Below, in pieces: positions 5,401 through 52,953 of a stretch of 64,000 bases of DNA. The DNA comes from Candidatus Uhrbacteria bacterium (GTDB taxonomy: Bacteria > Patescibacteriota > Patescibacteriia > UBA9934 > GWF2-40-263). The stretch is taken from positions 13,968 to 77,967 of the forward strand of contig JAHFIQ010000003.1 of NCBI GenBank assembly GCA_023246355.1, given 5' to 3'. The position numbers and the translations under genes are program-made. Positions within the stretch are counted from its first letter, which is position 1; the number at the start of each line of letters is the position of its first letter. The notes beneath the pieces were generated by a model. That model ran no database searches and was not told where the DNA came from. It saw only the letters and a program-made list of their open reading frames with translations.

Positions 5401-5742
5401 ATGTTTCATTTTTTTCGAAATCGCATTCACGAGTCGCTTGCCCTTGCCGGGCTCTTTGCCGGAGCCATCGCTCTTCACGTTGCCTGGATCGATAATCTTC
5501 TGATCACACGTAGTCAGCTCATTCGCGAGTTCATCACGCTGAATCCTGCGATCGGTCCCATCAGTGGATTGTATGTTGATACCCTTGGCGCCTTCTTCGT
5601 GAGCTTTCTGCTCGCCGCCTTTTTCTGGCGCGGCCGTGATGTCTCGCACTGGCGCGATCGGGTGTTCTGGTTTTTCGTCACCTCGATCGTGATCTTCTTG
5701 CTCATGACCCTGCCGTTTGTGTACGGGTTTGTGGTGAGTTGA
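5401..5742 (+). CDS. hypothetical integral membrane protein
   Basis: 113 aa hydrophobic. Starts 4 nt after the previous ORF (likely co-transcribed). Confidence 0.4.
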   Translation: MFHFFRNRIHESLALAGLFAGAIALHVAWIDNLLITRSQLIREFITLNPAIGPISGLYVDTLGAFFVSFLLAAFFWRGRDVSHWRDRVFWFFVTSIVIFLLMTLPFVYGFVVS

Positions 5743-5797: not shown

Positions 5798-7285
5798 ATG
5801 GAAATCAAGGTTTACAAGGGGGATCTGACACAGGAAAAAGCCGATCTGTTGGTCGTGGGGCATTTTTCAGACGCCAAATCATTGGAGGGTCCCGTGGCCG
5901 CCGTTGATACCGCCATGGGAGGCAGGCTCTCAAGGCTCATGAAGGATGATGGATTCAAGGCAAAGCTTGCCTCTACGTTTTTGACTCATACAAACGGAGA
6001 GATCGCGGCCAAACGCGTCCTTGTTGTTGGACTGGGGAAAAAAGACGAGGTGAATCTCGAGGCTGTTCGTCAGGCCGCGGCTGTTGCTGTGAATGTGGCC
6101 AAGGAGTGTGGGGCAAAAATAATGGTGTCTGAGCATCACGTCCCTGGGGAACTCAAGGCAGGTGACTGTGCTCAGGCAATGGTTGAGGGAGCACGGCTGG
6201 CAGATTACAGCTTCAGTCGCTACAAAAAGCCGTCGCAAAAATCTCCAAAACTTTTTGCGATCGTCACAAATGACGGAAAGATTTTGCGATCGTCAGAAAA
6301 AGGTTTGGAACTGGGCGAACTCGCCGCCCGTGGAGTTGTCTTTGCTCGAGACCTCGTAAACACCCCAGCACACGACATGCATCCTGAAACGCTCGTGGAC
6401 ATGGCCAAGTCGATCGCCAAGGGCAAGTCCTCGATTCGTGTTCGTGTATTTGATCGCGAGGCTCTCAAACGCATGGGCGCTGGCGGTATTCTGGGTGTCG
6501 CACAAGGATCTGATCATCCGCCCTACCTTGTGCACATGACCTACAAACCAAAGAAGCCCACAAAAAAGTCCATCGCGCTTGTGGGCAAAGCAGTGACCTT
6601 CGATTCCGGTGGGCTTTCACTGAAGCCTGCCGATTACATGATGACGATGAAGTGTGACATGGCTGGCGCGGCTGCGGTGTTGGGGGCATTCAGTGTGATC
6701 GCAGACCTTGCCCCAGGAGTCGAAGTGCATGGAATTTTTGGCGCGGTCGAGAACATGCCATCCGGCGGCGCGATTCGTCCAGGGGATGTACTCACAGCCA
6801 TGAACAAAAAAACCATGGAGGTGTTGAATACGGACGCAGAAGGTCGTCTCACACTCGCTGATACACTTTCCTACGCGGCTAAGTTGAAGCCTGCGTTTAT
6901 TGTTGATTTGGCAACGCTCACCGGAGCATGTGTTGTGGCTCTTGGAGAGGAGATTACAGGCGTGATGTCAAACGACGACAAGGTTGCCTCACAGACCCTG
7001 GACGCGGCAGCTGCGGCTGGGGAGAAAATGTGGCGCCTTCCACTTGAAAAGAATTACAAGAAAGTTATCAAATCCCAAATCGCTGACCTGCAAAACATCG
7101 GCAACAAATGGGGTGGGGCGCTCACCGCTGGCTTGTTCCTCGAAGAATTTGTAGACAAGACACCCTGGGCGCATTTGGACATCGCTGGCCCTGCCTTTGC
7201 CGAACGCGAGATTGATCCCTACACCCACAAAGGGGCGACAGGGCATGGTGTGAGAACGCTTTTGGCTCTCCTCAGATCTCTCTAG
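5798..7285 (+). CDS. pepA: leucyl aminopeptidase (M17 family)
   Basis: 495 aa. M17 signature NTDAEGRLTLADTL and conserved metal-binding region (KPADYMMTMKCDMAGAAAV). Confidence 0.9.
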   Translation: MEIKVYKGDLTQEKADLLVVGHFSDAKSLEGPVAAVDTAMGGRLSRLMKDDGFKAKLASTFLTHTNGEIAAKRVLVVGLGKKDEVNLEAVRQAAAVAVNVAKECGAKIMVSEHHVPGELKAGDCAQAMVEGARLADYSFSRYKKPSQKSPKLFAIVTNDGKILRSSEKGLELGELAARGVVFARDLVNTPAHDMHPETLVDMAKSIAKGKSSIRVRVFDREALKRMGAGGILGVAQGSDHPPYLVHMTYKPKKPTKKSIALVGKAVTFDSGGLSLKPADYMMTMKCDMAGAAAVLGAFSVIADLAPGVEVHGIFGAVENMPSGGAIRPGDVLTAMNKKTMEVLNTDAEGRLTLADTLSYAAKLKPAFIVDLATLTGACVVALGEEITGVMSNDDKVASQTLDAAAAAGEKMWRLPLEKNYKKVIKSQIADLQNIGNKWGGALTAGLFLEEFVDKTPWAHLDIAGPAFAEREIDPYTHKGATGHGVRTLLALLRSL

Positions 7286-8637: not shown

Positions 8638-8687
8638 AAGATGTGAGAAAGTGAATGATGAGTTATCATGGTAGCCGAGGATAGCCT

Positions 8688-9545
8688 ATGACACAACATC
8701 GCTCTACGCTTTATCTGCTTTTGGCTGCGGTTTTGGTTTTCGGGGTTTTGTCTCTTGAGTATCACATTCATCGCACTCCCATTGCGATCGATCAGCAGAC
8801 GCCCCCACAAATCATTGAGAGTGGTCTGATGAAAGACGCCATCCCAGCCATCACAGATCCTGTCATCGAGTCGATTGCCGAGGCGGATGTGTATCTTGAA
8901 AACGATGGGCCTGGGATCGTGGTTGAGCAGAAAGGCTATGCGCGATTTTACCCATTTCAAATTTTGGTTTGGCATGAAGTGGTGAATGATACCTTTCGTG
9001 GAGAGGATATTCTCGTCACCTTTTGTCCACTCACGTATTCCTCTGCGGTGTATGAACGCACGGTGGCAGATGAAGTCGCAATTTTTGGGGTGTCTGGAAA
9101 AGTGATGGACAGCAACACCCTGCTGTTTGATGCGGCATCCGAGTCCCTGTGGTCTCAATTGAAAGGCGAGGCTATTGAAGGAGCATTCACAGGCGCCAGA
9201 CTTGTACGACTTCCGTCGACGCTCATGTCCTGGTCTGAGTTCAAGACAGCGTATCCTTACGGCGACGTCCTTTCACGGGAAACAGGTGCGGATCGGGACT
9301 ACACACAAAATCCGTACGACCAGGAAAGCTATTTCGATTCTGCAGCGGTCTGGTTTCCACTCTCTCACGAAGACGCACGACTTCCAGCAAAGACGATTGT
9401 GTATGGATACGAAGAGGACGGATCGGCAATGGCCTATCCAGAGGATTATGTGCAAGATGAAACAGACGATCGAGTGCTCAGACCTGCCTACTGGTTTGCC
9501 TGGGCATCTGCCTATCCTGAAACTGAAATATGGAAAGGTGGATAA
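8688..9545 (+). CDS. DUF3179-domain protein with N-terminal membrane anchor
   Basis: Motif YPFQILVWHEVVNDTFRGEDILVTFCPLTYSSAVYER matches the DUF3179 family pattern as I recall it. Confidence 0.55.
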   Translation: MTQHRSTLYLLLAAVLVFGVLSLEYHIHRTPIAIDQQTPPQIIESGLMKDAIPAITDPVIESIAEADVYLENDGPGIVVEQKGYARFYPFQILVWHEVVNDTFRGEDILVTFCPLTYSSAVYERTVADEVAIFGVSGKVMDSNTLLFDAASESLWSQLKGEAIEGAFTGARLVRLPSTLMSWSEFKTAYPYGDVLSRETGADRDYTQNPYDQESYFDSAAVWFPLSHEDARLPAKTIVYGYEEDGSAMAYPEDYVQDETDDRVLRPAYWFAWASAYPETEIWKGG

Positions 9546-9635
9546 GGTAGAATAGGTAGATAAGGTATTTCCGAATTCGATTTCTAAGATTTTTTCCACC
9601 TCGTCCACCTTATCTCCCTCACTGCCCATGTTCTT

Positions 9636-10310: not shown

Positions 10311-11743
10311 ACCGTTCCTACATCACCACCACGCTTCCCTACGTCAACGCCAAACCACATATTGGTTTTGCCCTTGAGATTGTGCAAGCAGATGTGCTGG
10401 CTCGTGTGTTTCGTTTGAAAGGGTCAGAAGTGATTTTTAATACCGGGACGGACGAACACGGACAAAAAATTTACGAACGTGCGGTCGCCGAAGGAAAAGA
10501 TCCTCAGACCTATGTGGACGAGTATGCAGCGAAATTTGATGCACTCAAATCCGCGTTGAATCTCAGCTACACACATTTCATCCGCACCAGCGATCCCGCA
10601 CACAAAAAAGCGGCTCAGGAATTTTGGACACGTTGTGAAACGCAAGGCGACATTTACAAGAGTCGGTACCAGGTGAAGTACTGCGTGGGGTGTGAACTCG
10701 AAAAAACAGAATCAGAACTTGTGGACGGACATTGTTCGGTTCACCCAAACATGATTCTCGAGTTGCGCGATGAGGAGAATTATTTTTTTCGATGGTCCAA
10801 GTATCAAGAGAAGCTGCTGGCTCTGTACAAGCAGCGTCCTGACTTTGTTGTCCCAGAGCATCGTCTGAAGGAGATCCGTACGTTTGTGGAAGGAGGGTTG
10901 AATGACTTCAGCATCTCACGACTCAAAGAAAAAATGCCGTGGGGGGTGAGCGTGCCAGGGGATGAAGATCATGTGATGTACGTCTGGTTTGATGCGCTCG
11001 TCAATTATATTTCCACGCTCGGTTGGCCGGATGAGAGTGGCGAGTTTGCTTTTTGGCCAGGCGTGCAAGTTGCCGGCAAAGATAATTTGCGTCAGCAGTC
11101 CGCGATGTGGCAGGCCATGCTGATGTCGGCCGGCGTGGAGCCATCAAAACAGATTTTTATTCATGGTTTTATCACCTCTGATGGACAGAAGATGAGCAAG
11201 AGTCTTGGAAATGTGGTGGATCCATTTGAACTGGCGACCGAGTACGGGACAGACGCACTTCGGTATTATTTACTTCGAGAGATTCCGTCAAGTGAAGACG
11301 GCGACTTCTCCCGTGCGCGCATGGAAGAGCGCTATGCAGAGCTGGCAAATCAGCTGGGCAATCTTGTGAGTCGCGTGGCAGCCATGGCGGTCAAGTATTT
11401 TGATGGCAACCTCGATGAAGTGAAGATGGACTGGATGCCTCTCTATCAAAAACTTGGTGCTGCGATCGAGCAGTATGATTTCAAATCGTACCTCGATCAA
11501 GTGTTTGAGGTGGTCGCACAGGCAAATGATCTGGTGGACAAAAAATCTCCCTTCAAACTTGTGAAGGAAGACGAAGCGGCCGCGAAGGCTGTTCTCTCAC
11601 AGCTCTCTGTGATGATCCGTTTCGTCGGCCAAGCGCTTGCCCCGTTTCTTCCACAGACGAGCGAGGAAATTCTCCGTCGCTATGGTAAAGTTGTACTAGT
11701 AGGTGAATCACTTTTTCCCCGTCGCGACTCCTCGTCCACCTAA
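10307..11743 (+). CDS. metG: methionyl-tRNA synthetase (short form, no C-terminal tRNA-binding extension)
   Basis: HIGH-type motif (PYVNAKPHIGFALE), KMSKS, Zn-knuckle CVGCE...C. 4-nt overlap with rsmI. Confidence 0.9.
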   Translation: MNRSYITTTLPYVNAKPHIGFALEIVQADVLARVFRLKGSEVIFNTGTDEHGQKIYERAVAEGKDPQTYVDEYAAKFDALKSALNLSYTHFIRTSDPAHKKAAQEFWTRCETQGDIYKSRYQVKYCVGCELEKTESELVDGHCSVHPNMILELRDEENYFFRWSKYQEKLLALYKQRPDFVVPEHRLKEIRTFVEGGLNDFSISRLKEKMPWGVSVPGDEDHVMYVWFDALVNYISTLGWPDESGEFAFWPGVQVAGKDNLRQQSAMWQAMLMSAGVEPSKQIFIHGFITSDGQKMSKSLGNVVDPFELATEYGTDALRYYLLREIPSSEDGDFSRARMEERYAELANQLGNLVSRVAAMAVKYFDGNLDEVKMDWMPLYQKLGAAIEQYDFKSYLDQVFEVVAQANDLVDKKSPFKLVKEDEAAAKAVLSQLSVMIRFVGQALAPFLPQTSEEILRRYGKVVLVGESLFPRRDSSST

Positions 11744-11772
11744 TCTCCCTTCGCCATCTTTTCCACCTCACT

Positions 11773-16447: not shown

Positions 16448-17290
16448 ATGTCCTTGATGATTCCTCCAGCTGCGGCTGAACCACTCTTTTACCTCGGCAC
16501 GTTTCCCATCACCAACGCGATGATCAATGCTTGGATCGCTGTGGTGTTTTTTGTTTGTGTGGCTTTTGTAGCACGTCGTCGTGTGGGTCTCGTACCAAAA
16601 GGCATTCACAATGTCATCGAAGCCGCGATTGACTTCATGCTCACAGAAACACAGAAGGTCACAGGCGACATGAAGCGCGCCAAACAATTTTTGCCGATCG
16701 TGGGAACGATTTTTCTCTTCGTGCTTTTTTCCAACTGGTTGGGACTGTTGCCTGGAACAGGGTCTATCGGCATTTGGGCACAGCATGAAGGTGCGATTGA
16801 GCTTATTCCACTTTTACGACCTGCGGCCAGTGACTTGAATCTCACCCTTGCCATGGCCCTCTTTGCTGTGGTCGCCTCTCACCTGATTGGCATCATGGCC
16901 GTTGGTCCTGTCGCTCATGTGAGCAAGTTCGTAAATATTCGTGGAATTTTCCGTTCGCTCAAGAAAGGCCCCATGGCCATTGTTGTGGCTTTAATCGAAT
17001 TTGCCGTCGGCTTGCTTGAAATCGTATCTGAAATCGCCAAGGTCCTCTCGCTCTCTTTGCGATTGTTCGGTAATATCTTTGCCGGAGAGGTGCTCTTAAC
17101 CGTCATGCTGGGGATCCTTGCGTACGCTCTGCCAATACCCTTCATGTTTCTCGAGCTTCTCGTGGGTATCATCCAGGCCACGGTCTTTGCCATGTTGACG
17201 CTTGCCTACCTCACTGTTGCGACACAGAGTCATGACGAGCATGAGGAAGATCACGAACCTCGACATGCACCTGCACCCTCTATCACCTAA
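16448..17290 (+). CDS. atpB: F0F1 ATP synthase subunit a
   Basis: Conserved Arg-containing helix (LSLRLFGNIFAGEVLL). Confidence 0.9.
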   Translation: MSLMIPPAAAEPLFYLGTFPITNAMINAWIAVVFFVCVAFVARRRVGLVPKGIHNVIEAAIDFMLTETQKVTGDMKRAKQFLPIVGTIFLFVLFSNWLGLLPGTGSIGIWAQHEGAIELIPLLRPAASDLNLTLAMALFAVVASHLIGIMAVGPVAHVSKFVNIRGIFRSLKKGPMAIVVALIEFAVGLLEIVSEIAKVLSLSLRLFGNIFAGEVLLTVMLGILAYALPIPFMFLELLVGIIQATVFAMLTLAYLTVATQSHDEHEEDHEPRHAPAPSIT

Positions 17291-17308
17291 TCTACCTTAT
17301 CCACCTAA

Positions 17309-18537: not shown

Positions 18538-20052
18538 ATGACAACCAAAACACATATCATCGACGCACTGAAGTCAGCCTTGGAGAACTATCACGTCGAA
18601 GTGAAACAAGAAGAAGTCGGAACCGTGTTGTCTGTGGGTGACGGCACGGCACGTATGTCAGGACTTACCCATGCCAAGGCGTCAGAGATGCTTGAATTTT
18701 CTGGCGGGGTTTTTGGCGTCGCCCTGAACCTTGAAGAAGACGGCGTAGGCGCGGTCATTCTTGGCGACGCCTCAAAGATCAAGGAAGGGGACACCGTGAA
18801 AACCACCGGTCGTATTTTGTCTGTGGCGATTTCCGATGATGTCGTAGGCCGTGTGCTTGATCCACTCGGCAATCCGATTGATGGAAAAGGCAAGCTCAAT
18901 GCGAAAACCTTTTTTCCGATTGAAAAAATCGCGCCAGGCGTGATGACACGAAAATCAGTTGGTGTGCCGTTGCAAACGGGCATCAAAGCGATCGACTCGA
19001 TGATTCCCATTGGTCGCGGACAGCGCGAGCTGATTATTGGCGATCGTCAGACAGGAAAGACCGCCATCGCGATTGACACAATCATCAACCAGAAAGGACA
19101 GAACGTGAAGTGCATTTATGTCGCGATTGGGCAGAAAGAATCCAAGATCGCCAAGATCGTAGCCAGGCTTGAAGAAGCAGGCGCCATGGAATACACGACC
19201 GTCGTGGTCGCTGGCGCTTCTGATCCAGCCGCACTTTCCTACATCGCGCCGTTCACCGGCTGCACCATCGGGGAATATTTTATGGCGAAGGGCGAGGATG
19301 CGCTGGTGATCTACGACGACCTTTCCAAACAAGCCTGGGCGTATCGCGAAATTTCGCTGTTACTGCGCCGTCCACCAGGACGTGAAGCTTATCCTGGTGA
19401 TGTCTTTTATTTGCACTCACGTTTGCTTGAGCGTGCGGCTCGTCTCAACGAAGAAAACGGTGGAGGATCCTTGACCGCGCTTCCGATCATCGAAACACAG
19501 GCAGGTGATGTCAGTGCCTACATCCCGACAAACGTCATCTCGATTACAGACGGACAAATTTATCTTGAAACAGATTTGTTTTATCGCGGGATCCGTCCAG
19601 CCCTGAACGTCGGACTTTCTGTCTCACGCGTAGGTTCTGCGGCTCAGACCAAGGCCATGAAAAAAGTCGCGGGAAAATTGCGACTTGAACTCGCGCAATT
19701 CCGTGAGCTTGAGGCGTTCGCACAGTTTGCCACAGACTTGGATGCAGGGACACGGCAACAAATCGAACGTGGACGCCGTCTGACTGAGCTGTTGAAACAG
19801 CCTCAATATCATCCTCTTCCATTTGAAGTACAGGTTGCGTCGATCTATGCCGCGATCAATGGATGTTTGGATGCAATCGCTCCTGAGCGAATCGTGGAAT
19901 GGGAAGAGAAATTTCAGACGTATCTGGAAAGCTCGGGCACAGAAGTCATGGAGCAGCTCAAAAAAGAAAAAGCGTTGAATGATGAGATTGAAGCTGGTCT
20001 TAAAAAATTGATCCAGGATTTTAATTCCACCTTTGCCACCTCATCTACCTAA
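18538..20052 (+). CDS. atpA: F0F1 ATP synthase subunit alpha
   Basis: Walker A GDRQTGKT; conserved alpha-subunit blocks. Confidence 0.95.
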
Positions 20053-20064
20053 TCCACCTTCCGT

Positions 20065-37712: not shown

Positions 37713-37761
37713 ACGAATTACGAATGGTACGAATATACGAATCGAAAATTTTAGTACGAAA
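37713..37761 (-). promoter_or_regulatory. array of 4-5 TTCGTA(C) half-sites (the half of the TTCGTAC|GTACGAA palindrome) upstream of the small membrane protein gene
   Basis: Plus-strand text gacgaaTTACGAAtgGTACGAAtaTACGAAtcgaaaattttaGTACGAAa read directly. Overlaps the 3' end of the M23 peptidase gene. Confidence 0.45.
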
Positions 37762-44056: not shown

Positions 44057-44115
44057 AGTCGCCAAGAAAACGATCAGGTCTAGATATCGGAACCCAAGAC
44101 TTAATGCCACACTTT

Positions 44116-44141
44116 TTCGTACGTACGAACTTTTGTCGACA
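44116..44141. promoter_or_regulatory. palindromic site TTCGTACGTACGAA followed by TGTCGACA (putative operator)
   Basis: Perfect 14-bp palindrome at 44116-44129 and 8-bp palindrome TGTCGACA at 44134-44141, between clpB and the AKR gene. Same composite motif as at 51361-51387. Confidence 0.5.
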
Positions 44142-44219
44142 AAGCAGGACTGACAGTTGTTCACCGGGGTGAAAATTCGTCATCGTTTCTCAGCGTGCTT
44201 TGTGGTAGTCTGGGACAGT

Positions 44220-45155
44220 ATGAATTCATCAACTACAGAGCTCACCCTAAATACCGGAGCTAAAATGCCTTTGCTTGGCCTGGGAACCTGGAATGCTCCC
44301 AAGGATAAAGTTGGCGCAGCAGTAGAGATGGCACTGACACGTCACGGCTACTCACACATTGATTGTGCACACGTCTATGAGAATGAAGTAGAAGTCGGTG
44401 CAGCCTTCAATCGGGTGTTTTCAAACAGTGCTCGTAGGCGTGAAGACGTATTCATCACTAGTAAACTTTGGAATTACGATCACGCCAAAGCAGATGTTCG
44501 AACCGCTTGTGAGAAAACATTACAGGATCTCCAGCTCGATTATCTCGATCTGTATCTCATGCACTTTGGTATTGCCTCGCCTCATGACGGTCGCATCGAG
44601 CCCGTCGATAAGGATGGTTTTCTCCTTCCAGCAAAGGTGTCCGTCCGTGAGACCTGGGAAGCGATGGAGGAGTTGATCGGGGCAGGGCTTGTGAAGGCAA
44701 TTGGTATTTCGAACTTCACCGCACCGATGATCGTCGATCTGCTGACCTACGCCCGGATTGTCCCAGCTGTGAACCAAATTGAACTTCATCCCTACTGCCA
44801 GCAGCCACGCACACTGGAGTTCTGTGAGCATCTCGGCATCACCGTTACCGCCTATTCTCCACTTGGTTCACAGGTTGAAATGAACAATGGAAAGCCGCCG
44901 CTGCTTGAGGATCCAACAATCAAGTCAGTTGCCGAGCGACTCGGAAGGTCGCCGGCACAGGTCTGTCTTCGATGGGGCGTGCAACGAGGAACCGCGGTCA
45001 TTCCAAAGAGCTCAACAGATCCTCACATAAAGGAAAACGCTGAAATCTTTCACTTTGATCTCAGCAACGATGACATGCGTCAACTCGCTGTCCTCGATCG
45101 CCGCCTACACTATGTTGACCCGTACGAGTGGTGGAAGATCCCTTACTTTGAGTGA
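44220..45155 (+). CDS. aldo/keto reductase (AKR) family oxidoreductase
   Basis: MPLLGLGTWNAPKDKV...HIDCAHVYENE catalytic tetrad region, IPKSSTDPHIKEN C-terminal motif. Start at ATG 44220. Confidence 0.85.
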   Translation: MNSSTTELTLNTGAKMPLLGLGTWNAPKDKVGAAVEMALTRHGYSHIDCAHVYENEVEVGAAFNRVFSNSARRREDVFITSKLWNYDHAKADVRTACEKTLQDLQLDYLDLYLMHFGIASPHDGRIEPVDKDGFLLPAKVSVRETWEAMEELIGAGLVKAIGISNFTAPMIVDLLTYARIVPAVNQIELHPYCQQPRTLEFCEHLGITVTAYSPLGSQVEMNNGKPPLLEDPTIKSVAERLGRSPAQVCLRWGVQRGTAVIPKSSTDPHIKENAEIFHFDLSNDDMRQLAVLDRRLHYVDPYEWWKIPYFE

Positions 45156-45197
45156 CAGACAACCAAAAAAGCACGCAAAAATGAAGATCGTCTGAAG

Positions 45198-45206
45198 TGG
45201 TATAAT
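45198..45206 (+). promoter_or_regulatory. extended -10 element TGgTATAAT. Transcript predicted to be leaderless or nearly so (ATG at 45216).
   Basis: TGGTATAAT at 45198-45206 read directly. Only 9 nt from the end of the -10 box to the ATG. Confidence 0.45.
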
Positions 45207-45215
45207 GGCTGAGTC

Positions 45216-46628
45216 ATGAAAAAGCTCAGCTTTTTAGTTTTGCTTGCGGTGGTGGGCTCTATCCCCTCACCTCTTTTCGCAGCGGACGCGACATTCAATC
45301 CGTATTTTTTGCTTTCAGATGCAGATATGACAGATACGGAAAGCATGTCTCTCACAGATGTCTCCCGATTTTTAACAAGAGGTGGCCTCGCTTCCTACAC
45401 AGACACAGATATTGACGGAGAGGATAAAACGGCTTCCGAACTGATCTGGAACGCCGCACAAGAATTTGAACTTAGCCCGAAATTTTTGTTGACGCTGTTG
45501 CAACGTGAGCAAAGTCTTGTGGAAGATCCAACCCCATCGGATGATCAGCTCGCCTGGGCCATGGGCTATGCCGTCTGCGATGACTGCTCAAAATCAGATC
45601 CGCGCATTCAAAAATTCAAAGGCTTTGCCTCACAGGTGCATTATGCCGCAGCGCGCATCCGGGAGTCGTATCTCACTGATCTTGAGGAGCGCGGCTACAC
45701 GGAAACAGGTGTCGGTCCAGGTATTGAAATAACCATCGACAACACCACGGTCGTTCCGGTCAATTTTGCCACTTCATCGCTGTACACCTACACCCCGCAT
45801 CTGCATGGGAATGAAAATTTTGTCTCGATCTGGGAACGCTGGTTTGGTCAGGAGTTTCCCACGGGCTCCCTGCTCCAAGACAAAGACACAGGCGGCATTT
45901 GGCTCATTCAAAACAACGAGCGACGACCGATCACATCGCGCGCAGCCTTCTTTTCGCGATTCAACGTCAACACGGTTGTGGCCGTGAGTGGCACGACGCT
46001 TGCATCCTATCCCATCGGCAACGCGATCAGTTTTCCAAACTATTCCTTGTTGCGCTCACCTGGAGGCACGGTCTATCTTCTCGTTGATGACACACGTCGA
46101 GGATTCACATCACAGGAAGCCTTTCGCTCGCTTGGATTTAACCCCGATGAAATCGTTGACGTGAGCTGGGACGATTTGAATGTGTACACAGAAGCAACGC
46201 CGATTAGCGTGGAGACCGTCTATCCACAAGGAGCTCTCCTCCAAGACAAGACAACCGGTGGCGTGTTCTACGTAGAGAACGGCGAAAAGCACCCGATCGT
46301 GTCACGCGAAATTCTTGCCAATCGCTTTGCCGACCAAACAATCGTCCCTGTCGATCCGGAAAATCTCGAGAGTTATCCTCGTGCCGAGGAAGTTGGTTTT
46401 GCAGACGGAACCCTCATTGGCGTGACAGGCTCGCCTGATATCTTTGTTGTTTCCGAAGGCCTTCGCCGTCCCATTCTCGATGAGGTCACGTTTTTCACCT
46501 ACGGTTGGAGTTTTGACCAGGTCGTGTGGACCAACGAACGATCTGTACTGTTGCATCCACTGGGTGAAGCCGTATCAACGGATTTGGATCAAGAAGAAGA
46601 CGATGTCGAAATCGCCACAACTCACTAG
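45216..46628 (+). CDS. secreted hypothetical protein with two internal ~110-aa repeats
   Basis: Signal peptide MKKLSFLVLLAVVGSIPSPLFA. Repeated module GSLLQDKDTGGIWLIQNNERRPITSRAAFFSRF... / GALLQDKTTGGVFYVENGEKHPIVSREILANRF... Confidence 0.5.
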   Translation: MKKLSFLVLLAVVGSIPSPLFAADATFNPYFLLSDADMTDTESMSLTDVSRFLTRGGLASYTDTDIDGEDKTASELIWNAAQEFELSPKFLLTLLQREQSLVEDPTPSDDQLAWAMGYAVCDDCSKSDPRIQKFKGFASQVHYAAARIRESYLTDLEERGYTETGVGPGIEITIDNTTVVPVNFATSSLYTYTPHLHGNENFVSIWERWFGQEFPTGSLLQDKDTGGIWLIQNNERRPITSRAAFFSRFNVNTVVAVSGTTLASYPIGNAISFPNYSLLRSPGGTVYLLVDDTRRGFTSQEAFRSLGFNPDEIVDVSWDDLNVYTEATPISVETVYPQGALLQDKTTGGVFYVENGEKHPIVSREILANRFADQTIVPVDPENLESYPRAEEVGFADGTLIGVTGSPDIFVVSEGLRRPILDEVTFFTYGWSFDQVVWTNERSVLLHPLGEAVSTDLDQEEDDVEIATTH

Positions 46629-46631
46629 ACT

Positions 46632-47429
46632 ATGCTCGTATTTGCCGCCATCACCCCACACACCCCGCTGCTCATCCCAACCATTGGGAAAGAAAATCTC
46701 AAAGCCATGCAGGCCACAGGGACGGCCATGAAACGCGTGGCGGAAGATTTTTATCTCTCTGCCCCAGAAACCGTCATCGTCATCTCCAGTCATGCCACAC
46801 AGTACACAGATGCGTTTGCGATCAATCTTCACGAGACTTACTCGATTGACTTCAAAGATTTCGGCGATCTCTCAACCAGCCGCTCGCTTGAGCCAGATCT
46901 TGAAACGATCACGTTGATTCAACGGGCCATGCGTGGGGCCCATATTCCTCTGACACTGGATTCTGCTTCCTCACTCGATTACGGCACAGGCGTTCCCCTC
47001 ACCTATCTTCTAGAAAAATCTCCTCACGTTCAGGTCGTCCCCCTTTCCCATGCCGGACTTACGTCACGTGATCATGTCCGTTTTGGAAACATCCTCAAGG
47101 ACGTCATTGACGCATCAAAAAAACGTATCGCGATCATTGCTTCTGGTGATCTGGCGCATTCCATCACCTCGGACTCACCCCTTGGATTTCGTCCTGAAGG
47201 CGAGGCGTATGATCATCGAGTTGTCGAAGCGGTAAAAAATCATTCCCTCTCCTCGCTCCTTTCCTTGGACGAAGAGACCGTCAGCAAGTCCGGACAATGT
47301 TTACACGAACAACTCCTCATCCTTCTGGGAATACTTGAAAAGACGCAAACCCGACCTAAAGTCATCAGCTACGAACACCCATTTGGCGTCGGCTATCTCG
47401 TGGCCGAATTTCATCTCACTGACCTATGA
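46632..47429 (+). CDS. class III extradiol-dioxygenase-fold protein (LigB/YgiD/Memo superfamily)
   Basis: 265 aa; His-rich motifs (ISSHATQ, PLSHAGL, ASGDLAHS) typical of the LigB/Memo fold. Precise subfamily unresolved. Confidence 0.5.
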   Translation: MLVFAAITPHTPLLIPTIGKENLKAMQATGTAMKRVAEDFYLSAPETVIVISSHATQYTDAFAINLHETYSIDFKDFGDLSTSRSLEPDLETITLIQRAMRGAHIPLTLDSASSLDYGTGVPLTYLLEKSPHVQVVPLSHAGLTSRDHVRFGNILKDVIDASKKRIAIIASGDLAHSITSDSPLGFRPEGEAYDHRVVEAVKNHSLSSLLSLDEETVSKSGQCLHEQLLILLGILEKTQTRPKVISYEHPFGVGYLVAEFHLTDL

Positions 47430-49252
47430 TCGCAGAAGTGTATCCTCTCAAGCGCATGAGCAGAGGGTTGTCTGCGTTTGATTATCTCATCCCTGAAGTC
47501 TTGCAGATCCAGCGCGGAATGTTCGTCACCATTCCCTACCGTCGATCTACCGTGAACGGGATTGTCAAGAGAGTGAAAGATAAACCTGTCCGGGGCATCA
47601 CGCTCAAATCGATCGACTCGATCTATGCGGGCGTACATCTGAGAGAGGAAGAGCTCTCTTTTTTTGAATCACTTGCTCAGGATCTTTTTCAGTCCCCGGC
47701 GACCGTTCTATTCAGTGCCTTCCCCCAGCTCCCAAAAAAAGAAGACGCACTGAACGTCTCACCTTCTTTTTCTTGGCTTCCCCTCACCCTCCCGAGATCT
47801 GAAGCAGAAACCATTGTGCGACTGGTCACACAATTAAAAGAACGATCCAAGGCTTTCGTGCAGACTCCGGACATTCGCCGATGTACAGCCCTTATTCTTG
47901 GCTACATACAGGGGACAGAAAAACAAAAGGTCCTGCTCCTTGCACCAACGCTTCGGGACGTAGAACAGATTCGATCACATCTTTCTGGTCTTGAACCGTT
48001 CGTCATCACCGGTGAGGAGACATCCATCGAGAGATTCAAACGCTGGAAGGCGTTTCATGGCGCTTCCTCGGGTCTCATGCTAGGAACACGCACAGCCGGT
48101 CTCATGATGGATTCCACTATCACTACTATTTTTCTTGTGCGATCGGGCGACGTGAACCACAAACAAGAGGACCGAAACCCACGCATCGACCTGCGTGAAC
48201 TCGCGTGGAACGTTCATGAACAATTTTCTGCGAATCTTTTTTGCTTGGATGTTGTCGCGCGTCCACAAACCTTTTCTCGTTTCTCTCCTGCGGAAATCCT
48301 CGGCTGGCCCATGACCTCCAAGGCCCAGGTCATTGACATTAACAAGGACCCACAGGGCCGGCATCGATCCATCACCTACCAAGCTGAGCAGTTGATTCAG
48401 GAAAGAATCGCCCAGGGTCGTGTGCTTATCGTTCACCAGCAAAAAGGCATCGCCAAGTTGATCCTCTGTCATGCATGTGGACATCGTCCCCTGTGTCCAA
48501 CCTGTGAGACATCCCTTACGGCTTTTTCCCACACGCTCTCGTGTGCCATGTGTCACCACAAGGAGCCGATGATTCTTCGCTGTCCAGAGTGTCAAAGCAC
48601 AGAGCTCATTCGCGTGGGTCCTGGGAATCAAGAAGTCGCTCAGGAGGTCAAAAAACTTTTTCCTGACTCTTCCGTTTCCATTGTTGATCGTGATCATCCT
48701 TCTGATGACGGAGCAAGGATCGTGATCGTCACCTCATTTTTTCTCGAGCAAGTATATGATCCTTTTCGACCTGGATCTTTTTCTCTGGTGCTCCTCACAA
48801 ATGCTGACACCCCGCTCTATGGCGATCACCCATCGGCCTTGGAATCGCTGACCCACGAGCTTTGGCAATGGCGATGGCTTGCCCACACAGCTCATGCAAC
48901 CTTTCTTGTGCAAACCGGGAGTCCGTCTCTCATCCTGAAAGCGCTTGAGGACACAGAAACGCTCCTGAAAGAAGACCTTGCCTCTCGCGAGTTCTATCAT
49001 CTTCCACCTTTTTATCAGTGGCTGCGGATCACTCTCAAAGAAGATGAACCGCACAAGGCACAGCTTGAGATGACGCAGCTCAAACAGCGACTCAGTGAGA
49101 TTCCCGATGTTCGATTTGGAGCGCTCACGACCCTTCCACACGAGGGAGTCGCTCTTGAGTTCGGCGTCCCCACGCAGGAAAAGAAACGACTGCACGCTCT
49201 CTTCACGTCCCTTCCCGATCGCTATATCATTGACACAGGACTCTTTTCTTAG
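47426..49252 (+). CDS. priA: primosomal protein N' (PriA)-like, with degenerate helicase motifs
   Basis: PriA-type N-terminal 3'-DNA-binding domain and the 4xCxxC zinc-binding insertion (CHACGHRPLCPTC...CAMCHH...CPECQS). No Walker A GxGKT and no DEAH box seen by eye. Confidence 0.6.
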   Translation: MIAEVYPLKRMSRGLSAFDYLIPEVLQIQRGMFVTIPYRRSTVNGIVKRVKDKPVRGITLKSIDSIYAGVHLREEELSFFESLAQDLFQSPATVLFSAFPQLPKKEDALNVSPSFSWLPLTLPRSEAETIVRLVTQLKERSKAFVQTPDIRRCTALILGYIQGTEKQKVLLLAPTLRDVEQIRSHLSGLEPFVITGEETSIERFKRWKAFHGASSGLMLGTRTAGLMMDSTITTIFLVRSGDVNHKQEDRNPRIDLRELAWNVHEQFSANLFCLDVVARPQTFSRFSPAEILGWPMTSKAQVIDINKDPQGRHRSITYQAEQLIQERIAQGRVLIVHQQKGIAKLILCHACGHRPLCPTCETSLTAFSHTLSCAMCHHKEPMILRCPECQSTELIRVGPGNQEVAQEVKKLFPDSSVSIVDRDHPSDDGARIVIVTSFFLEQVYDPFRPGSFSLVLLTNADTPLYGDHPSALESLTHELWQWRWLAHTAHATFLVQTGSPSLILKALEDTETLLKEDLASREFYHLPPFYQWLRITLKEDEPHKAQLEMTQLKQRLSEIPDVRFGALTTLPHEGVALEFGVPTQEKKRLHALFTSLPDRYIIDTGLFS

Positions 49253-49267
49253 TATCCTGATCCTCCT

Positions 49268-49738
49268 ATGACCCTTCGCGCCGTGCTCAAAAATCCCAAT
49301 GATCGCCTTCGCAAGAAAGCGAAGTCTGTTTCCGCTGAGGACATCCCATCCCCTGAGGTCCAGAATCTGATTGATGATCTCATCGAGACCATGATGGTCG
49401 AGAACGGAGTTGGGATTGCTTCAACGCAAATCGGATCAGACAAACGCATCATTATTGTTGACGTGGATGGAGTCTTACCGCTTATCAATCCCGAAATTGT
49501 GGGGAAGTCCGTCCGTAGAATCGAATTTGAAGAAGGCTGTCTTTCTGTTCCGGGCGTCACTGGCATTGTCAAACGCCACAGAGAGGTCAAACTGAAAGCC
49601 TTTGATCGAAACGGAAAACCGCTCACCATCAAAGCCAAAGGGCTTCTCGCAATCGTCCTCCAACATGAAACAGACCATCTCGACGGCATCTTGTTCATTG
49701 ATAAAGTCATCCGCTACACCAACCCTCCACGCATGTGA
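49268..49738 (+). CDS. def: peptide deformylase
   Basis: Motifs GIGIASTQIG, EGCLSVPG, HETDHLDG. Confidence 0.9.
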   Translation: MTLRAVLKNPNDRLRKKAKSVSAEDIPSPEVQNLIDDLIETMMVENGVGIASTQIGSDKRIIIVDVDGVLPLINPEIVGKSVRRIEFEEGCLSVPGVTGIVKRHREVKLKAFDRNGKPLTIKAKGLLAIVLQHETDHLDGILFIDKVIRYTNPPRM

Positions 49739-50682
49739 AGATCGTTTTTTTTGGAACCCCGGAGTTCTCAATCCCCTTTCTTCAAGCTCTCATCGACGAT
49801 CCTGAAACGGAAATCGTTGGTGTTGTGACTCAACCAGACAAACCGGTTGGACGCGGGGGTGAGGTGCAGGCATCGCCTGTGAAAACCCTTGCCCTTTCAC
49901 ACCACCTCCAGGTTTTCACGCCAACGTCTTTAAAAACGGATCCGAAGATTTTAGACGCGCTCCGATATTTGAACGCTGATCTCTTTGTCGTGGTCGCGTA
50001 CGGTAAACTCATTCCGCAATCCATTCTGGATATTCCTCCACACGGCGTGATCAATGTTCATCCATCTCTGTTGCCGGCGTATCGTGGGCCTTCTCCCATG
50101 CAGTGGGCGATAGCGCAGGGCGATGTGTTTACCGGTGTGACGATCATGCTGTTAGATGCTGGTATGGATACCGGACCAATTCTTTCGTTTGAGCGAATCG
50201 ATCTAGGTGCGGAGGAAACGTACACAACCCTCTCACAAAAAGTTGAAACAACCGGATCGCGACTGCTTCTTTCCACACTCAAGCGTCACATGGCAGGTGA
50301 AATCATTCCCCTCCTTCAGGACAACACCAAAGCCACGATCACAAGACTCCTCGATCGCGAAGATGGCCACGTCAGCTGGTCAGAACCGATGGAAGTAACC
50401 GAGCGCAAATCTCGTGCCTACGGTGAGTGGCCTGGGTTGTGGTCGATCTGGCAGAGAAGTCCAGACGAACAGATTCGCCTTAAACTTTTGTCTGTTCGCC
50501 CGTCTGATTTTCATGCTGAGCTGTCTCCAGGATCGGTTACGGTCAAAGATGGTCGTCTGTTCGTCGATTGCGGAAATGGGACACTGGAGATTCTGGAGAT
50601 TCAACCAGAGGGAAAAGCAAAAATGAGCGCAAAGGCTTTCCTTCAGGGGAACCGAGAGATTCAGAATGCTCGTCTGGCCTAA
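49735..50682 (+). CDS. fmt: methionyl-tRNA formyltransferase
   Basis: N-terminal formyltransferase fold (VINVHPSLLPAYRGPSPMQWAI) and C-terminal domain. 4-nt overlap with def. Confidence 0.9.
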   Translation: MKIVFFGTPEFSIPFLQALIDDPETEIVGVVTQPDKPVGRGGEVQASPVKTLALSHHLQVFTPTSLKTDPKILDALRYLNADLFVVVAYGKLIPQSILDIPPHGVINVHPSLLPAYRGPSPMQWAIAQGDVFTGVTIMLLDAGMDTGPILSFERIDLGAEETYTTLSQKVETTGSRLLLSTLKRHMAGEIIPLLQDNTKATITRLLDREDGHVSWSEPMEVTERKSRAYGEWPGLWSIWQRSPDEQIRLKLLSVRPSDFHAELSPGSVTVKDGRLFVDCGNGTLEILEIQPEGKAKMSAKAFLQGNREIQNARLA

Positions 50683-50770: not shown

Positions 50771-50810
50771 TGTAGATGTCTACGACTTTTCGTACGTACG
50801 AAATTTTGTT
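50771..50810. repeat. left flank repeat of the Cas2-like gene: TGTAGATGTCTACGACTTTTCGTACGTACGAAATTTTGTTGTCA
   Basis: Contains perfect palindrome TTCGTACGTACGAA (50789-50802). Direct repeat of 51349-51390. Confidence 0.6.
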
Positions 50811-50811
50811 G

Positions 50812-51348
50812 TCATTGCCTTTTCGCAAGATACACCTCAACCCAATCTTTTATCTTTGCCATTCGCACGAACTCCTTTACCTCCCTGACAACATCTTTAT
50901 CTGTTTCCCAAACACTGTGCTGTACCTGTGAAAACCCAATTCGCTTCAAAAAATATCGAAGAGCATCTCGACCCAGGTTTCCCACTCTTGGAACATCATA
51001 CATAACAAGGCACACTTTTCCATCTGAAAGCATCTCTTTTTCCAAGACAATACGTTTCATAAGCTCCACCCGTCCCTCACCAGATAATTCATACAGCAAG
51101 CCTTCTTGGGTTTTTTTCGTCCTGATCAGATTCTTGCAGCGCAAATAGCTAACTCTTTTTTGAAATGCTCGCCGCTCCTCAAGACGGATTTCTGCCAGAC
51201 GATCTTCAGGATCAAGCCGATAAGGTTTATGGCTCGCCCACACCTCAAACATTTCACCTGCCTCGACGGCAGCATCCTCCAACAGACGCAACAATCGTGT
51301 AGTAGCTTCTCTCCCTTTCGACGCTCTGTTGCTTTGTTTCTTTTTCAC
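50812..51348 (-). CDS. protein with N-terminal wHTH-like region and C-terminal Cas2/VapD-like domain (solo; GTG start)
   Basis: C-terminal LVMYDVPRVGNLGRDALRYFLKRIGFSQVQHSVWETDKDVVREVKEF follows the Cas2 core pattern (beta1 xVxYDV with Asp, R..L.R...yG.RvQ.SVfE). N-terminal ~95 aa is basic/helical (LIRTKKTQEGLLYELSGEGRVELMKR). No CRISPR array or cas1 in the window. Confidence 0.55.
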   Translation of the reverse strand: MKKKQSNRASKGREATTRLLRLLEDAAVEAGEMFEVWASHKPYRLDPEDRLAEIRLEERRAFQKRVSYLRCKNLIRTKKTQEGLLYELSGEGRVELMKRIVLEKEMLSDGKVCLVMYDVPRVGNLGRDALRYFLKRIGFSQVQHSVWETDKDVVREVKEFVRMAKIKDWVEVYLAKRQ

Positions 51349-51390
51349 ATGTCTACATTATTCCGTACGTACGAAAATCTGTCGACAGTA
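51349..51390. repeat. right flank repeat of the Cas2-like gene: CATGTCTACATTATTCCGTACGTACGAAAATCTGTCGACAGT
   Basis: Palindromic core CGTACGTACG (51364-51373) plus TGTCGACA (51380-51387). Lies in the promoter region of the minus-strand gene. Confidence 0.6.
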
Positions 51391-51426: not shown

Positions 51427-52953
51427 TCATGATACGTTGATGTCACTCGTCAGCACGGAAACCTGCTGTCTGCCAAGATTCAATGGAACAGAAACCCCAA
51501 CCACAGCCTCGGCTGGTTTTTTGGTTGGGAGGAACGGGACAAGGAATAATAGATAGCCAAGCCCGATGGGATGATTCAGATAGGGCGAGAAAAAGTGCGT
51601 GGCAAAGATAAACACCAGGCCGCTCATGAGACCAAATCCAAGCCAGGCCTGTTCAGTCCAACGGTAAGCCCACAGGCGTTTGAGGAGCTCCCAGGCAGCG
51701 TACAGGAACGCAGCAGGGCCGAGGATCCCCATTTTGATCCACAGCTCAAACCAACCCCATTCCATGGAAGACGTCGTCCACGTTCCATCGGGGTGAATTT
51801 CCCGCACACGTGGATCGTCTGTGACGAATGTGACAGAGGCACCGAATCCGTGACCGGTAAGTGGACGTTCAAAAATTTTGTTGACCATGGGCGTCAGCAA
51901 TTTCCATCGACTTGATATGGCTACGTCATCTGAGTCTGTGGTTCGTTCTTTCAGGGTGAGCGCAAGATCGGATCCTGTGAGGTCCTGTGAGGGAACAGAA
52001 CATAGGATCACCAGAGCAATCAGAAAGATCGATACGATCCCGACGGACAACGCTGAACCGACAAATTTGAACGATTGTTTCAGCGTCGGCCGCAATTGTC
52101 GCCAAAGGAGGATCAAAAGAAACAGCACTGTTGGAACAAGTCCAACCCAAAAGCTGCGTGAGAGGGCCAGAATGATCGTTGAAATGATAAGGCTCCCAAG
52201 CAGCATCAAACGGCGATCACGCTTGAAAACCAGAAACGACGTCAGCAACAATCCAAAAATGATCACAAAAACCTGCGACTGAATGAAGACGCGATAGACT
52301 CCATGCCCCAGGCTGGTAATCTCGGCCACACGAAGGTCGCGAAAAAAATAATACGTCGCCTGCAGGACACTCTCTCCAAAGTGAGTGAAGATATACAGCA
52401 GGATAAGCGACAAAGACGAAATCCAAATCGCTCCGGCAGCGAGAACTTGAATCAGCTCACCACGTCGAGTCATGTTCCAATCAACACTCAATATTGGAAG
52501 CAGATAAAACAAATACAAATAGGCGTTTCCATCCCCGAAGACCACGGCAGGATCACGACTGAGAACCCCAACGATCAGGCCAAGGGTCGCAGCAAGAATG
52601 AGGAGATAATAAATTTTCGCGATCTCTCCTTTGTGCTCAAGCCAATACTTTTTGGTGAGCACGCCCATCCCCCACCCCAGCATCACACCAACAAAAATGG
52701 CCATGCGCAGCGTGAGCGAAAAACCGCCGACGATGTGAGTGAGCAAAACGCCATGTGGATTTGAAAACAGTTCGATGAAGACCAGAAGCAGGGCGTGATC
52801 CAAGCGTTTGTACGCAAGGATTGAGCTTCCTGCAACAAGTCCCAACAGGATCATACCGTCCACGTCTGAGTCATACCCAACAAGCGCGAGTCCATACAAG
52901 ATCGCCATCACAGCGATGGCTCTCCAGAATGTCGATCCGAAAAATTGACTCAT
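51427..52953 (-). CDS. O-antigen ligase/polymerase-like (Wzy_C domain) polytopic membrane protein
   Basis: 508 aa, about 12 TM helices with a large periplasmic loop. General Wzy/WaaL architecture; assignment by topology only. Confidence 0.5.
   Translation of the reverse strand: MSQFFGSTFWRAIAVMAILYGLALVGYDSDVDGMILLGLVAGSSILAYKRLDHALLLVFIELFSNPHGVLLTHIVGGFSLTLRMAIFVGVMLGWGMGVLTKKYWLEHKGEIAKIYYLLILAATLGLIVGVLSRDPAVVFGDGNAYLYLFYLLPILSVDWNMTRRGELIQVLAAGAIWISSLSLILLYIFTHFGESVLQATYYFFRDLRVAEITSLGHGVYRVFIQSQVFVIIFGLLLTSFLVFKRDRRLMLLGSLIISTIILALSRSFWVGLVPTVLFLLILLWRQLRPTLKQSFKFVGSALSVGIVSIFLIALVILCSVPSQDLTGSDLALTLKERTTDSDDVAISSRWKLLTPMVNKIFERPLTGHGFGASVTFVTDDPRVREIHPDGTWTTSSMEWGWFELWIKMGILGPAAFLYAAWELLKRLWAYRWTEQAWLGFGLMSGLVFIFATHFFSPYLNHPIGLGYLLFLVPFLPTKKPAEAVVGVSVPLNLGRQQVSVLTSDINVS

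Follow-up and report, generated by a model that had tools for sequence, protein, structure and literature searches.

A 64,000-nt stretch of DNA from a Candidatus Uhrbacteria bacterium (assembly GCA_023246355.1, contig JAHFIQ010000003.1, positions 13,968 to 77,967 of the forward strand; hereafter the window) encodes, on the minus strand at 50812–51348, a 178-aa protein that we read, with a probability of about 0.7, as an autoregulated short PaaX-like repressor, having operators at the 5′ and 3′ ends of its own gene and a further target in a string of genes headed by an aldo/keto-reductase (AKR) gene. The gene has a GTG start and a TGA stop, and was identified from its open reading frame (ORF) and a match to PF20803. 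The initial annotation of the window, made from the sequence alone, described a winged helix-turn-helix (wHTH) protein with a Cas2-like domain, encoded between two direct repeats that carry a palindrome, and a third copy of the palindrome further away. The positions that this annotation gave for the ORF, the two flanking repeats and the third palindrome copy were all confirmed.

The protein consists of a predicted N-terminal DNA-binding region and a Cas2-like domain. Residues 109–176 (50821–51024, minus strand) match PF20803 (PaaX_M, "PaaX protein central Cas2-like domain") with an E-value of 4.5e-11 and 43.1 bits (gathering cutoff 24). The same stretch matches the Cas2 model TIGR01573 at E 9e-5 and 22.7 bits, under the cutoff of 24.5, and the PADLOC Cas2 models at E 4e-6. 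An AlphaFold2 model built with 51 homologs (mean predicted local distance difference test score, pLDDT, of 83.7) comprises two long helices, a beta-hairpin and a further helix (helices at residues 9–38, 47–71 and 90–103, strands at 75–80 and 83–88), followed by a beta-alpha-beta-beta-alpha-beta domain, a ferredoxin-like fold in which beta1 ends with an Asp, as in Cas2. The N-terminal region, residues 1–104 (51037–51348, minus strand), was delimited from this model and from hhalign, and is predicted to contain a recognition helix at about residues 59–71 and a beta-hairpin wing at 75–88. In hhalign, residues 59–178 align with E. coli PaaX from residue 54 to about 175, covering the recognition helix, wing and central domain (probability 87%), and residues 59–93 fall on helix 3 and the wing of the PaaX wHTH domain (PaaX 54–100). 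The region also gave weak profile matches to ArsR, HlyU, FadR and PadR wHTH proteins; a Pfam scan of the protein gave no match to PF07848 there.

No PaaX_C domain was matched by Pfam. The protein stops at residue 178, directly after the Cas2-like domain, and PaaX residues beyond about 175 have no real counterparts in hhalign. The score against the PaaX equivalog model TIGR02277 was 16.6 bits, far below its cutoff of 264.55. The wHTH and Cas2-like combination proposed in the initial annotation is supported by the AlphaFold2 model, hhalign and PF20803, but the novelty claimed for a Cas2 fold outside CRISPR is not, because this is the already known architecture of PaaX (PF20803; PDB 8a39).

The Cas2-like domain carries the motifs Y117-D118-V119-P120, R127 and Q143-H-S145-V-W147. 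Word-based searches returned 58 relatives, nearly all of 170–190 aa and matched by PF20803 only; those with a named source belong to Ca. Uhrbacteria or other Patescibacteria, and some are labeled "DNA-binding transcriptional regulator PaaX" by JGI. Every close homolog carries PF20803. With an exhaustive profile search, 2423 cluster representatives were obtained at a threshold of E ≤ 1e-3, of which 606 also passed E ≤ 1e-10. Lengths among the 150 best range from 96 to 224 aa, and 146 of the 150 were retrieved and could be aligned (median 180 aa). Asp118, Pro120, Arg127 and Ser145 are each invariant in 146/146 of these sequences, and the Cas2 signature is recovered in the family motif, [FY]-D-[IV]-P...R...Q-x-S-V-W. 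In the hhalign alignment, E. coli PaaX shows Ser-Glu opposite Tyr-Asp, and no Q-x-S-V-W motif in the strand; compared by sequence, the domain is more similar to Cas2 (E 3e-4) than to PaaX of E. coli (E 0.39). The window protein shares the features of this short family, with PF20803 above the gathering score, a length within about 160–220 aa, no PaaX_C and the invariant motif. Among more distant relatives, one 133-aa protein (P0054) was matched by both PF20803 (PaaX_M) and PF09827 (Cas2), an indication of overlap between these Pfam families at their edges. The literature searched contained no report on PaaX with Cas2, or on PaaX-like proteins in the candidate phyla radiation (CPR), and it seems to be undescribed that a large family of CPR regulators has kept intact the Cas2 signature lost from canonical PaaX.

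The palindrome CGTACGTACG occurs three times in the 64 kb (44118, 50791 and 51364), compared with no occurrence in 100 dinucleotide shuffles, and a repeat finder placed all three sites in one family (D2). Read on the strand of the gene, the upstream repeat TGTCGACAGATTTTCGTACGTACGGAATAATGTAGACAT and the downstream repeat TGACAACAAAATTTCGTACGTACGAAAAGTCGTAGACAT align without gaps over about 42 nt, a little longer than the approximately 40 bp first annotated. The upstream copy, site C (51349–51388, minus strand; core 51362–51375), ends 5 nt ahead of the start codon and is a predicted operator from its repeat and its overlap with a promoter. The downstream copy, site B (50773–50811, minus strand; core 50789–50802), also a repeat and predicted operator, starts at the stop codon, with its center 16 nt past it, and lies in the convergent spacer with fmt. 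Both have a 6-2-6 core, TTCGTA-cg-TACGAA, and outer arms of the GACA/TGTC type, in the order outer arm (TGTCGACA or TGACAACA), 4-nt A/T-rich spacer, core, A-rich spacer and GTAGACAT. The third copy, site A (44104–44141; core 44116–44129), is found between clpB and the AKR gene, 60 nt past the former and about 90 nt before the start of the latter.

Site C coincides with a sigma-70-like promoter, TCGACA-17-AATAAT (10/12 match), running from 51385 to 51357 on the minus strand, with the palindrome inside the 17-nt spacer. The -10 hexamer ends 8 nt ahead of the GTG, suggesting a leaderless or near-leaderless mRNA with a transcription start that we infer from this spacing. The start codon agrees with that of the homologs, lying 20 nt from the palindrome center in most Uhrbacteria loci. 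Upstream copies in relatives retain a -35-like GTGACA or CTGACA, and T6 of the -10 hexamer is kept in 7/12 upstream copies versus 3/12 downstream copies, a comparison in which the upstream row of one locus (L012) is mis-registered by padding. These -10 counts weakly disfavor a second promoter at the 3′ copy. At site B the -10-like hexamer is degenerate (AAAGTC), and site B is therefore probably a binding site rather than a promoter.

The same arrangement is found throughout the Uhrbacteria-type set, which comprises 14 distinct loci from several genomic neighborhoods (the window and L001, L003, L005, L007, L008 and L012–L019). In 14/14 of these the gene is flanked by two cognate palindrome copies, and in most of them the upstream center is 19–21 nt from the start codon, and the downstream center 13–20 nt from the stop codon. 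The core varies among lineages (TTCGTAtaTACGAA, TTCGCAggTGCGAA, TTCTCAggTGAGAA, TTCACCggGGTGAA), and both copies change together: over 14 core positions, there are on average 0.8 mismatches within a locus, compared with 4.2 between loci. Both sites remain intact at 50–60% protein identity. Residues 62–67 and the wing differ between operator classes, a correspondence that is not separable from phylogeny among the approximately 15 related sequences compared (the L008 row was out of frame and was disregarded). Three Uhrbacteria metagenome-assembled genomes (MAGs) carry two regulator paralogs each (GCA_016206085.1, L001 and L013; JACQSJ, L012 and L014; JACRJW, L008 and L015), and each of these paralogs has its own distinct bracketing palindrome.

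A wider set of 67 dereplicated metagenomic loci of relatives, with 25–64% identity, gave a similar result. The best 18-mer common to the 5′ and 3′ flanks of the same gene had a mean match of 16.0/18, and at least 15/18 bases were common to both flanks in 56/67 loci, versus 5.5% of mismatched flank pairs. The shared elements are palindromes of 24–48 bp (median 38), each different, for example TTTGACCCGATCGGGTCAAA and AATTCGTGCGATCGCACGAATT. In the combined non-redundant set, a bracket (at least 15/18) was present in 67/78 loci, or about 85%. It was found with 25/30 convergent and 30/31 co-directional downstream neighbors. As the bracket is equally frequent whatever the strand of the downstream neighbor, the 3′ copy belongs to the regulator gene, and we rejected the general explanation that it is the operator of the downstream gene. 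This family-wide operator–gene–operator layout with co-evolving sites also appears to be undescribed.

Site A precedes a presumed target string on the plus strand (44220–50682), consisting of the AKR gene, a gene for a 470-aa protein, a LigB/Memo-like gene, priA, def and fmt. These were assigned from ORFs and Pfam matches, def and fmt being read from the ORF translations and the other members from Pfam. The string probably forms one operon, judging from its uniform strand and short gaps, and the gene order recurs in two related loci (L100 and L104). A second, different palindrome, TGACA-N4-TTCACCGGGGTGAA-N5-GTCATC (44150–44185), lies 44 bp from site A. The window has just three perfect 6-2-6 palindromes of the form TTC-N8-GAA, of which this is one, and in L014 the paralogous regulator gene is bracketed by the same element. 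We presume it to be the operator of a paralog. The occurrence of this L014-type palindrome predicts a second paralog, of the L014 type, outside the window in the same genome.

A related arrangement was found in the MAG GCA_016206085.1, in which paralog 1 (L001) has the cores TTCGTAtgTACGAA and TTCGTAccTACGAA, and paralog 2 (L013) has the core TTCGCAGGTGAGAA. The spacer before its asparaginase–AKR–472-aa–LigB–priA string contains TTCGTATATACGAA with GGACA/TGTCC arms, differing by 1–2 mismatches from the paralog 1 cores, and, 42 bp beyond it, TTCTCACCTGCGAA, whose reverse complement is exactly the L013 core. This pair of sites, 42 bp apart, mirrors the pair in the window, 44 bp apart, and L100 has a counterpart of site A at the same relative place, together with an analogous second site that exactly matches its own paralog, L013. 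Dual operators that are conserved in position, with sequences that track their own regulators, are expected of a regulon; insertion scars would not behave in this way. The initial annotation had offered, as one of two readings, a DNA-binding regulator with the palindrome as its operator, and this reading is supported by the promoter overlap, the co-variation and the conserved AKR-proximal site.

In the mechanism that we propose, the protein combines an N-terminal winged-helix module with a Cas2-like domain, which serves as a dimerization module in PaaX, and has no PaaX C-terminal effector domain. The dimer probably recognizes a composite palindrome of about 38 bp, composed of a GACA-type arm, N4, TTCGTA-cg-TACGAA, N4 and a TGTC-type arm. 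Binding at site C, between the -35 and -10 hexamers, would occlude RNA polymerase, resulting in negative autoregulation of the leaderless or near-leaderless transcript. Site B would be bound by the same protein, and may have either of two roles: it may cooperate with the 5′ site through a DNA loop of about 570 bp, or act as a protein roadblock, insulating the small autoregulated gene from transcription that comes in from its neighbors or runs out toward them. Site A, next to the operator of the second paralog, would make the string from AKR to priA, def and fmt a shared target. The model predicts that matches of TTCGTAnnTACGAA and TTCACCnnGGTGAA in the source assembly are few and intergenic, and that the assembly contains a paralog gene bracketed by TTCACCGGGGTGAA.

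Several observations weigh against this model. The first 50 residues are modeled with moderate confidence (pLDDT of about 70–74 for residues 10–50), making helices 1 and 2 less certain. The absolute conservation of the Asp, Pro, Arg and Ser residues exceeds the need of a plain dimerization domain, and this conservation is absent from canonical PaaX. Extra target sites are very rare, with 1 in 69 kb of flanks from 17 loci (about 0.14 per 10 kb), and most family members have no evident target besides their own gene. The regulon is not universal: L104 (contig Ga0637471_0001086) has the order AKR, 494-aa protein, LigB, priA, def, fmt, X, Wzy_C and GT2, with no operators before AKR, no regulator after fmt and no palindromes in 11 kb. 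Its regulator slot between fmt and Wzy (8685–9266) is filled by an unrelated 193-aa lipoprotein-like ORF, and the position of the regulator is therefore not fixed across Uhrbacteria, with gain and loss taking place. No helical phasing was found between the two bracketing sites, with spacings of 553–611 bp, an observation that weighs neither way for looping at such distances. Binding, repression rather than activation, the transcription start and the role of the 3′ site were all deduced from sequence.

The invariant Cas2-type residues may support metal or ligand binding, or catalysis, and this suggests a different function for the protein, as an active Cas2-type nuclease guided by its winged helix, cutting or processing DNA or RNA at the palindromes or their hairpins, for example by trimming the 3′ end of its own mRNA or by nicking for recombination, with DNA binding as the targeting step only. 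The four residues invariant in 146/146 sequences, the match of the motif to the Cas2 signature, the closer similarity of the domain to Cas2 than to E. coli PaaX, and the Ser-Glu of canonical PaaX at the Tyr-Asp position are all in keeping with such an activity, and palindromes of 24–48 bp could extrude as hairpins. Both spacers flanking the core are, however, A-rich on the same strand, and thus lack the complementarity that selection for a hairpin would demand. Promoter hexamers coincide with the upstream copy, repeated cutting of a single-copy chromosomal site beside essential genes would be harmful, and no antitoxin or Cas1 partner is encoded nearby in the window or the related loci. In Cas2, the conserved residues also have structural and dimer-interface roles. 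We consider a nuclease of this kind unlikely. A further possibility, also unlikely, is that the short PaaX-like family is an extant link between Cas2 and PaaX with the Cas2 active site still in use, acting either as a sequence-specific, winged-helix-guided nuclease or as a metal- or ligand-gated switch. If true, cleavage, processing or recombination would take place at the palindromes that bracket the gene, and each gene would be a self-contained, self-recognizing module, not an ordinary transcription factor.

One or both palindrome copies could also be accounted for without a regulatory role. The second reading of the initial annotation was a mobile or addiction cassette, in which the gene and its two same-orientation repeats form an inserted unit, the repeats being its ends, att sites or insertion duplications, and solo copies such as that at 44116 being scars. 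Some turnover of the gene does occur: its neighborhood differs between sub-clades, and an unrelated ORF takes its place between fmt and Wzy in the syntenic L104. In addition, a putative tRNA gene lies directly upstream of the regulator in L001 and L012, and direct alignment of the two repeats tends to give a better match than inverted alignment. Mobility itself is not borne out: no recombinase or transposase travels with the gene, no relatives were found in IMG/VR viral contigs or PLSDB plasmids and no PHROG match was obtained, and the comparison with L104, the one informative locus among L101–L104, gave no empty site that keeps a single copy of the repeat, L104 having none. Within sub-clades the gene order is kept at about 60% protein identity with both repeats intact and co-varying, indicating selection rather than the footprint of a recent insertion. 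The rarity of extra copies likewise disagrees with a cassette, and led us to reject REP-like dispersal; the "solo" copy at 44116 is part of the cross-genome two-operator arrangement that tracks the paralogs of each genome. A cassette is thus very unlikely. It is highly improbable, too, that only the upstream copy is an operator, and that the downstream copy is a transcription terminator hairpin, or a by-product of duplication that no protein binds. A T-run follows some downstream copies (e.g., L003, L005, L013 and L017), but T-runs are not enriched family-wide, with 4.2 T in the 12 nt after versus 4.3 A before the palindrome, and at least 6 T in 26%. Site B of the window would form a weak, A/U-rich 6-bp stem with no T-run, and a terminator needs no sequence identity with an operator whose sequence changes between lineages.

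The autoregulated repressor that we favor resembles known systems in several respects. PaaX (PDB 8a39; PF07848, PF20803 and PF08223), a repressor that responds to phenylacetyl-CoA in E. coli and Pseudomonas, likewise has its Cas2-like central domain after a recognition helix and wing, and a long palindromic operator of about 38–39 bp, similar to the window sites. It has been described as containing a wHTH, a motif for dimerization and a domain at the C-terminus (PMC9493321). E. coli PaaX binds TGATTC-N27-GAATCA and represses its own promoter by steric hindrance (PMC9493321), and the promoter geometry in the window fits such autorepression by occlusion. The window protein differs in its length (178 versus 316 aa), in lacking the C-terminal effector-binding domain, in its TIGR02277 score, far below the cutoff, and in having no paa genes nearby; no paa catabolic genes were found among the window neighbors or in the related loci examined. 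Unlike PaaX, its family retains the Tyr-Asp, Arg and Gln-x-Ser-Val-Trp signature of Cas2, its sites have a dense inner 6-2-6 core besides the outer arms, and its own gene has a predicted second operator at the 3′ end. With Cas2 (TIGR01573/PF09827) and VapD, the family shares the beta1 Asp and the Q-x-S-V-[FW] strand. In contrast to Cas2, the window protein is fused to a DNA-binding domain and scores below the TIGR01573 cutoff. As the initial annotation noted, there is no CRISPR array in the 64 kb and no cas1 or other cas gene in the window. No cas family occurs among the Pfam-annotated neighbors in six gene-called related loci.

The spacing of the sites recalls lambda CI, with its OL and OR operators, and the lac, gal, deo and ara looping systems, in which cognate operators are hundreds of bp apart, one of them at the regulated promoter; the lambda operators OL and OR flank the repressor gene itself. 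In the present case, however, the regulator gene is monocistronic, the second site starts at its stop codon, and this site is present whatever lies downstream. The palindrome–gene–palindrome anatomy with a nuclease-fold protein is also that of the units formed by REP-associated tyrosine transposases (RAYT) with repetitive extragenic palindromes (REP), and of IS200/IS605 elements. In contrast to these, the window palindrome is not dispersed (1 extra copy in 64 kb, and 1 extra in 69 kb of flanks), the protein has wHTH-like and Cas2-like domains only and no HUH (Y1) transposase, and the location is stable within sub-clades, with the extra copies at a conserved target promoter region.

In the window, the regulator gene lies between fmt (plus strand, ending at 50682) and a Wzy_C/O-antigen-ligase-like gene (minus strand, 51427–52953). 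Its neighbors, identified from the ORF list and Pfam, are fmt, def, priA and Wzy-type and glycosyltransferase genes. The 64 kb contain no Rfam match and no second member of the regulator family. The putative tRNA gene found upstream of the regulator in relatives, at 5685–5757 in L001 and in the upstream flank of L012, occurs in one sub-clade, and its anticodon loop was read by eye as Lys-TTT.

Other repeats were found elsewhere in the window. A cluster of four direct TACGAA half-sites (37713–37761) is located upstream of a 67-aa membrane ORF, in the spacer that separates this ORF from an M23-peptidase gene. The four half-sites, repeated directly rather than inverted, fall within 42 nt (37719–37760) with spacings of 9, 8 and 19, which was reached in 0/5000 random placements, although the hexamer is not enriched window-wide (33 found versus 31 expected). 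The cluster, already pointed out in the initial annotation, is thus real and locally significant, and the ORF is a possible member of the regulon. A tandem 29-nt repeat is present at 6236–6293, with both units ending in TTTTGCGATCGT; in distant members of the regulator family, operators are most often palindromes centered on CGATCG. Two families of C/T-rich 21–23-mers, CCTCGTCCACCTTATCTCCCT and ACAACCTAAAACCTACCCCCTAC, recur 6 and 4 times in the window, respectively (9599–9619, 11730–11750, 17277–17306 and 20030–20059, and also 12268, 13132, 20984 and 26591), and their reverse complements resemble the Shine-Dalgarno-rich leaders of minus-strand genes.

To our knowledge, very few transcription factors are recognizable in CPR/Patescibacteria, and almost nothing is known of their gene regulation. 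The arrangement described here provides a predicted operator for each member of a large uncharacterized regulator family, of over 2400 sequence clusters. Since comparing the 5′ and 3′ flanks of a gene is enough to read off its operator, it becomes possible to compute regulons for organisms that have not been cultured. The bracket of 5′ and 3′ operators is an unusual and strongly conserved layout, for which looping or insulation in a compact genome are candidate purposes. A further point, relevant to the origin of PaaX-type regulators from Cas2/VapD-like nucleases, is the perfect conservation of the Cas2 signature in a family of DNA-binding proteins.

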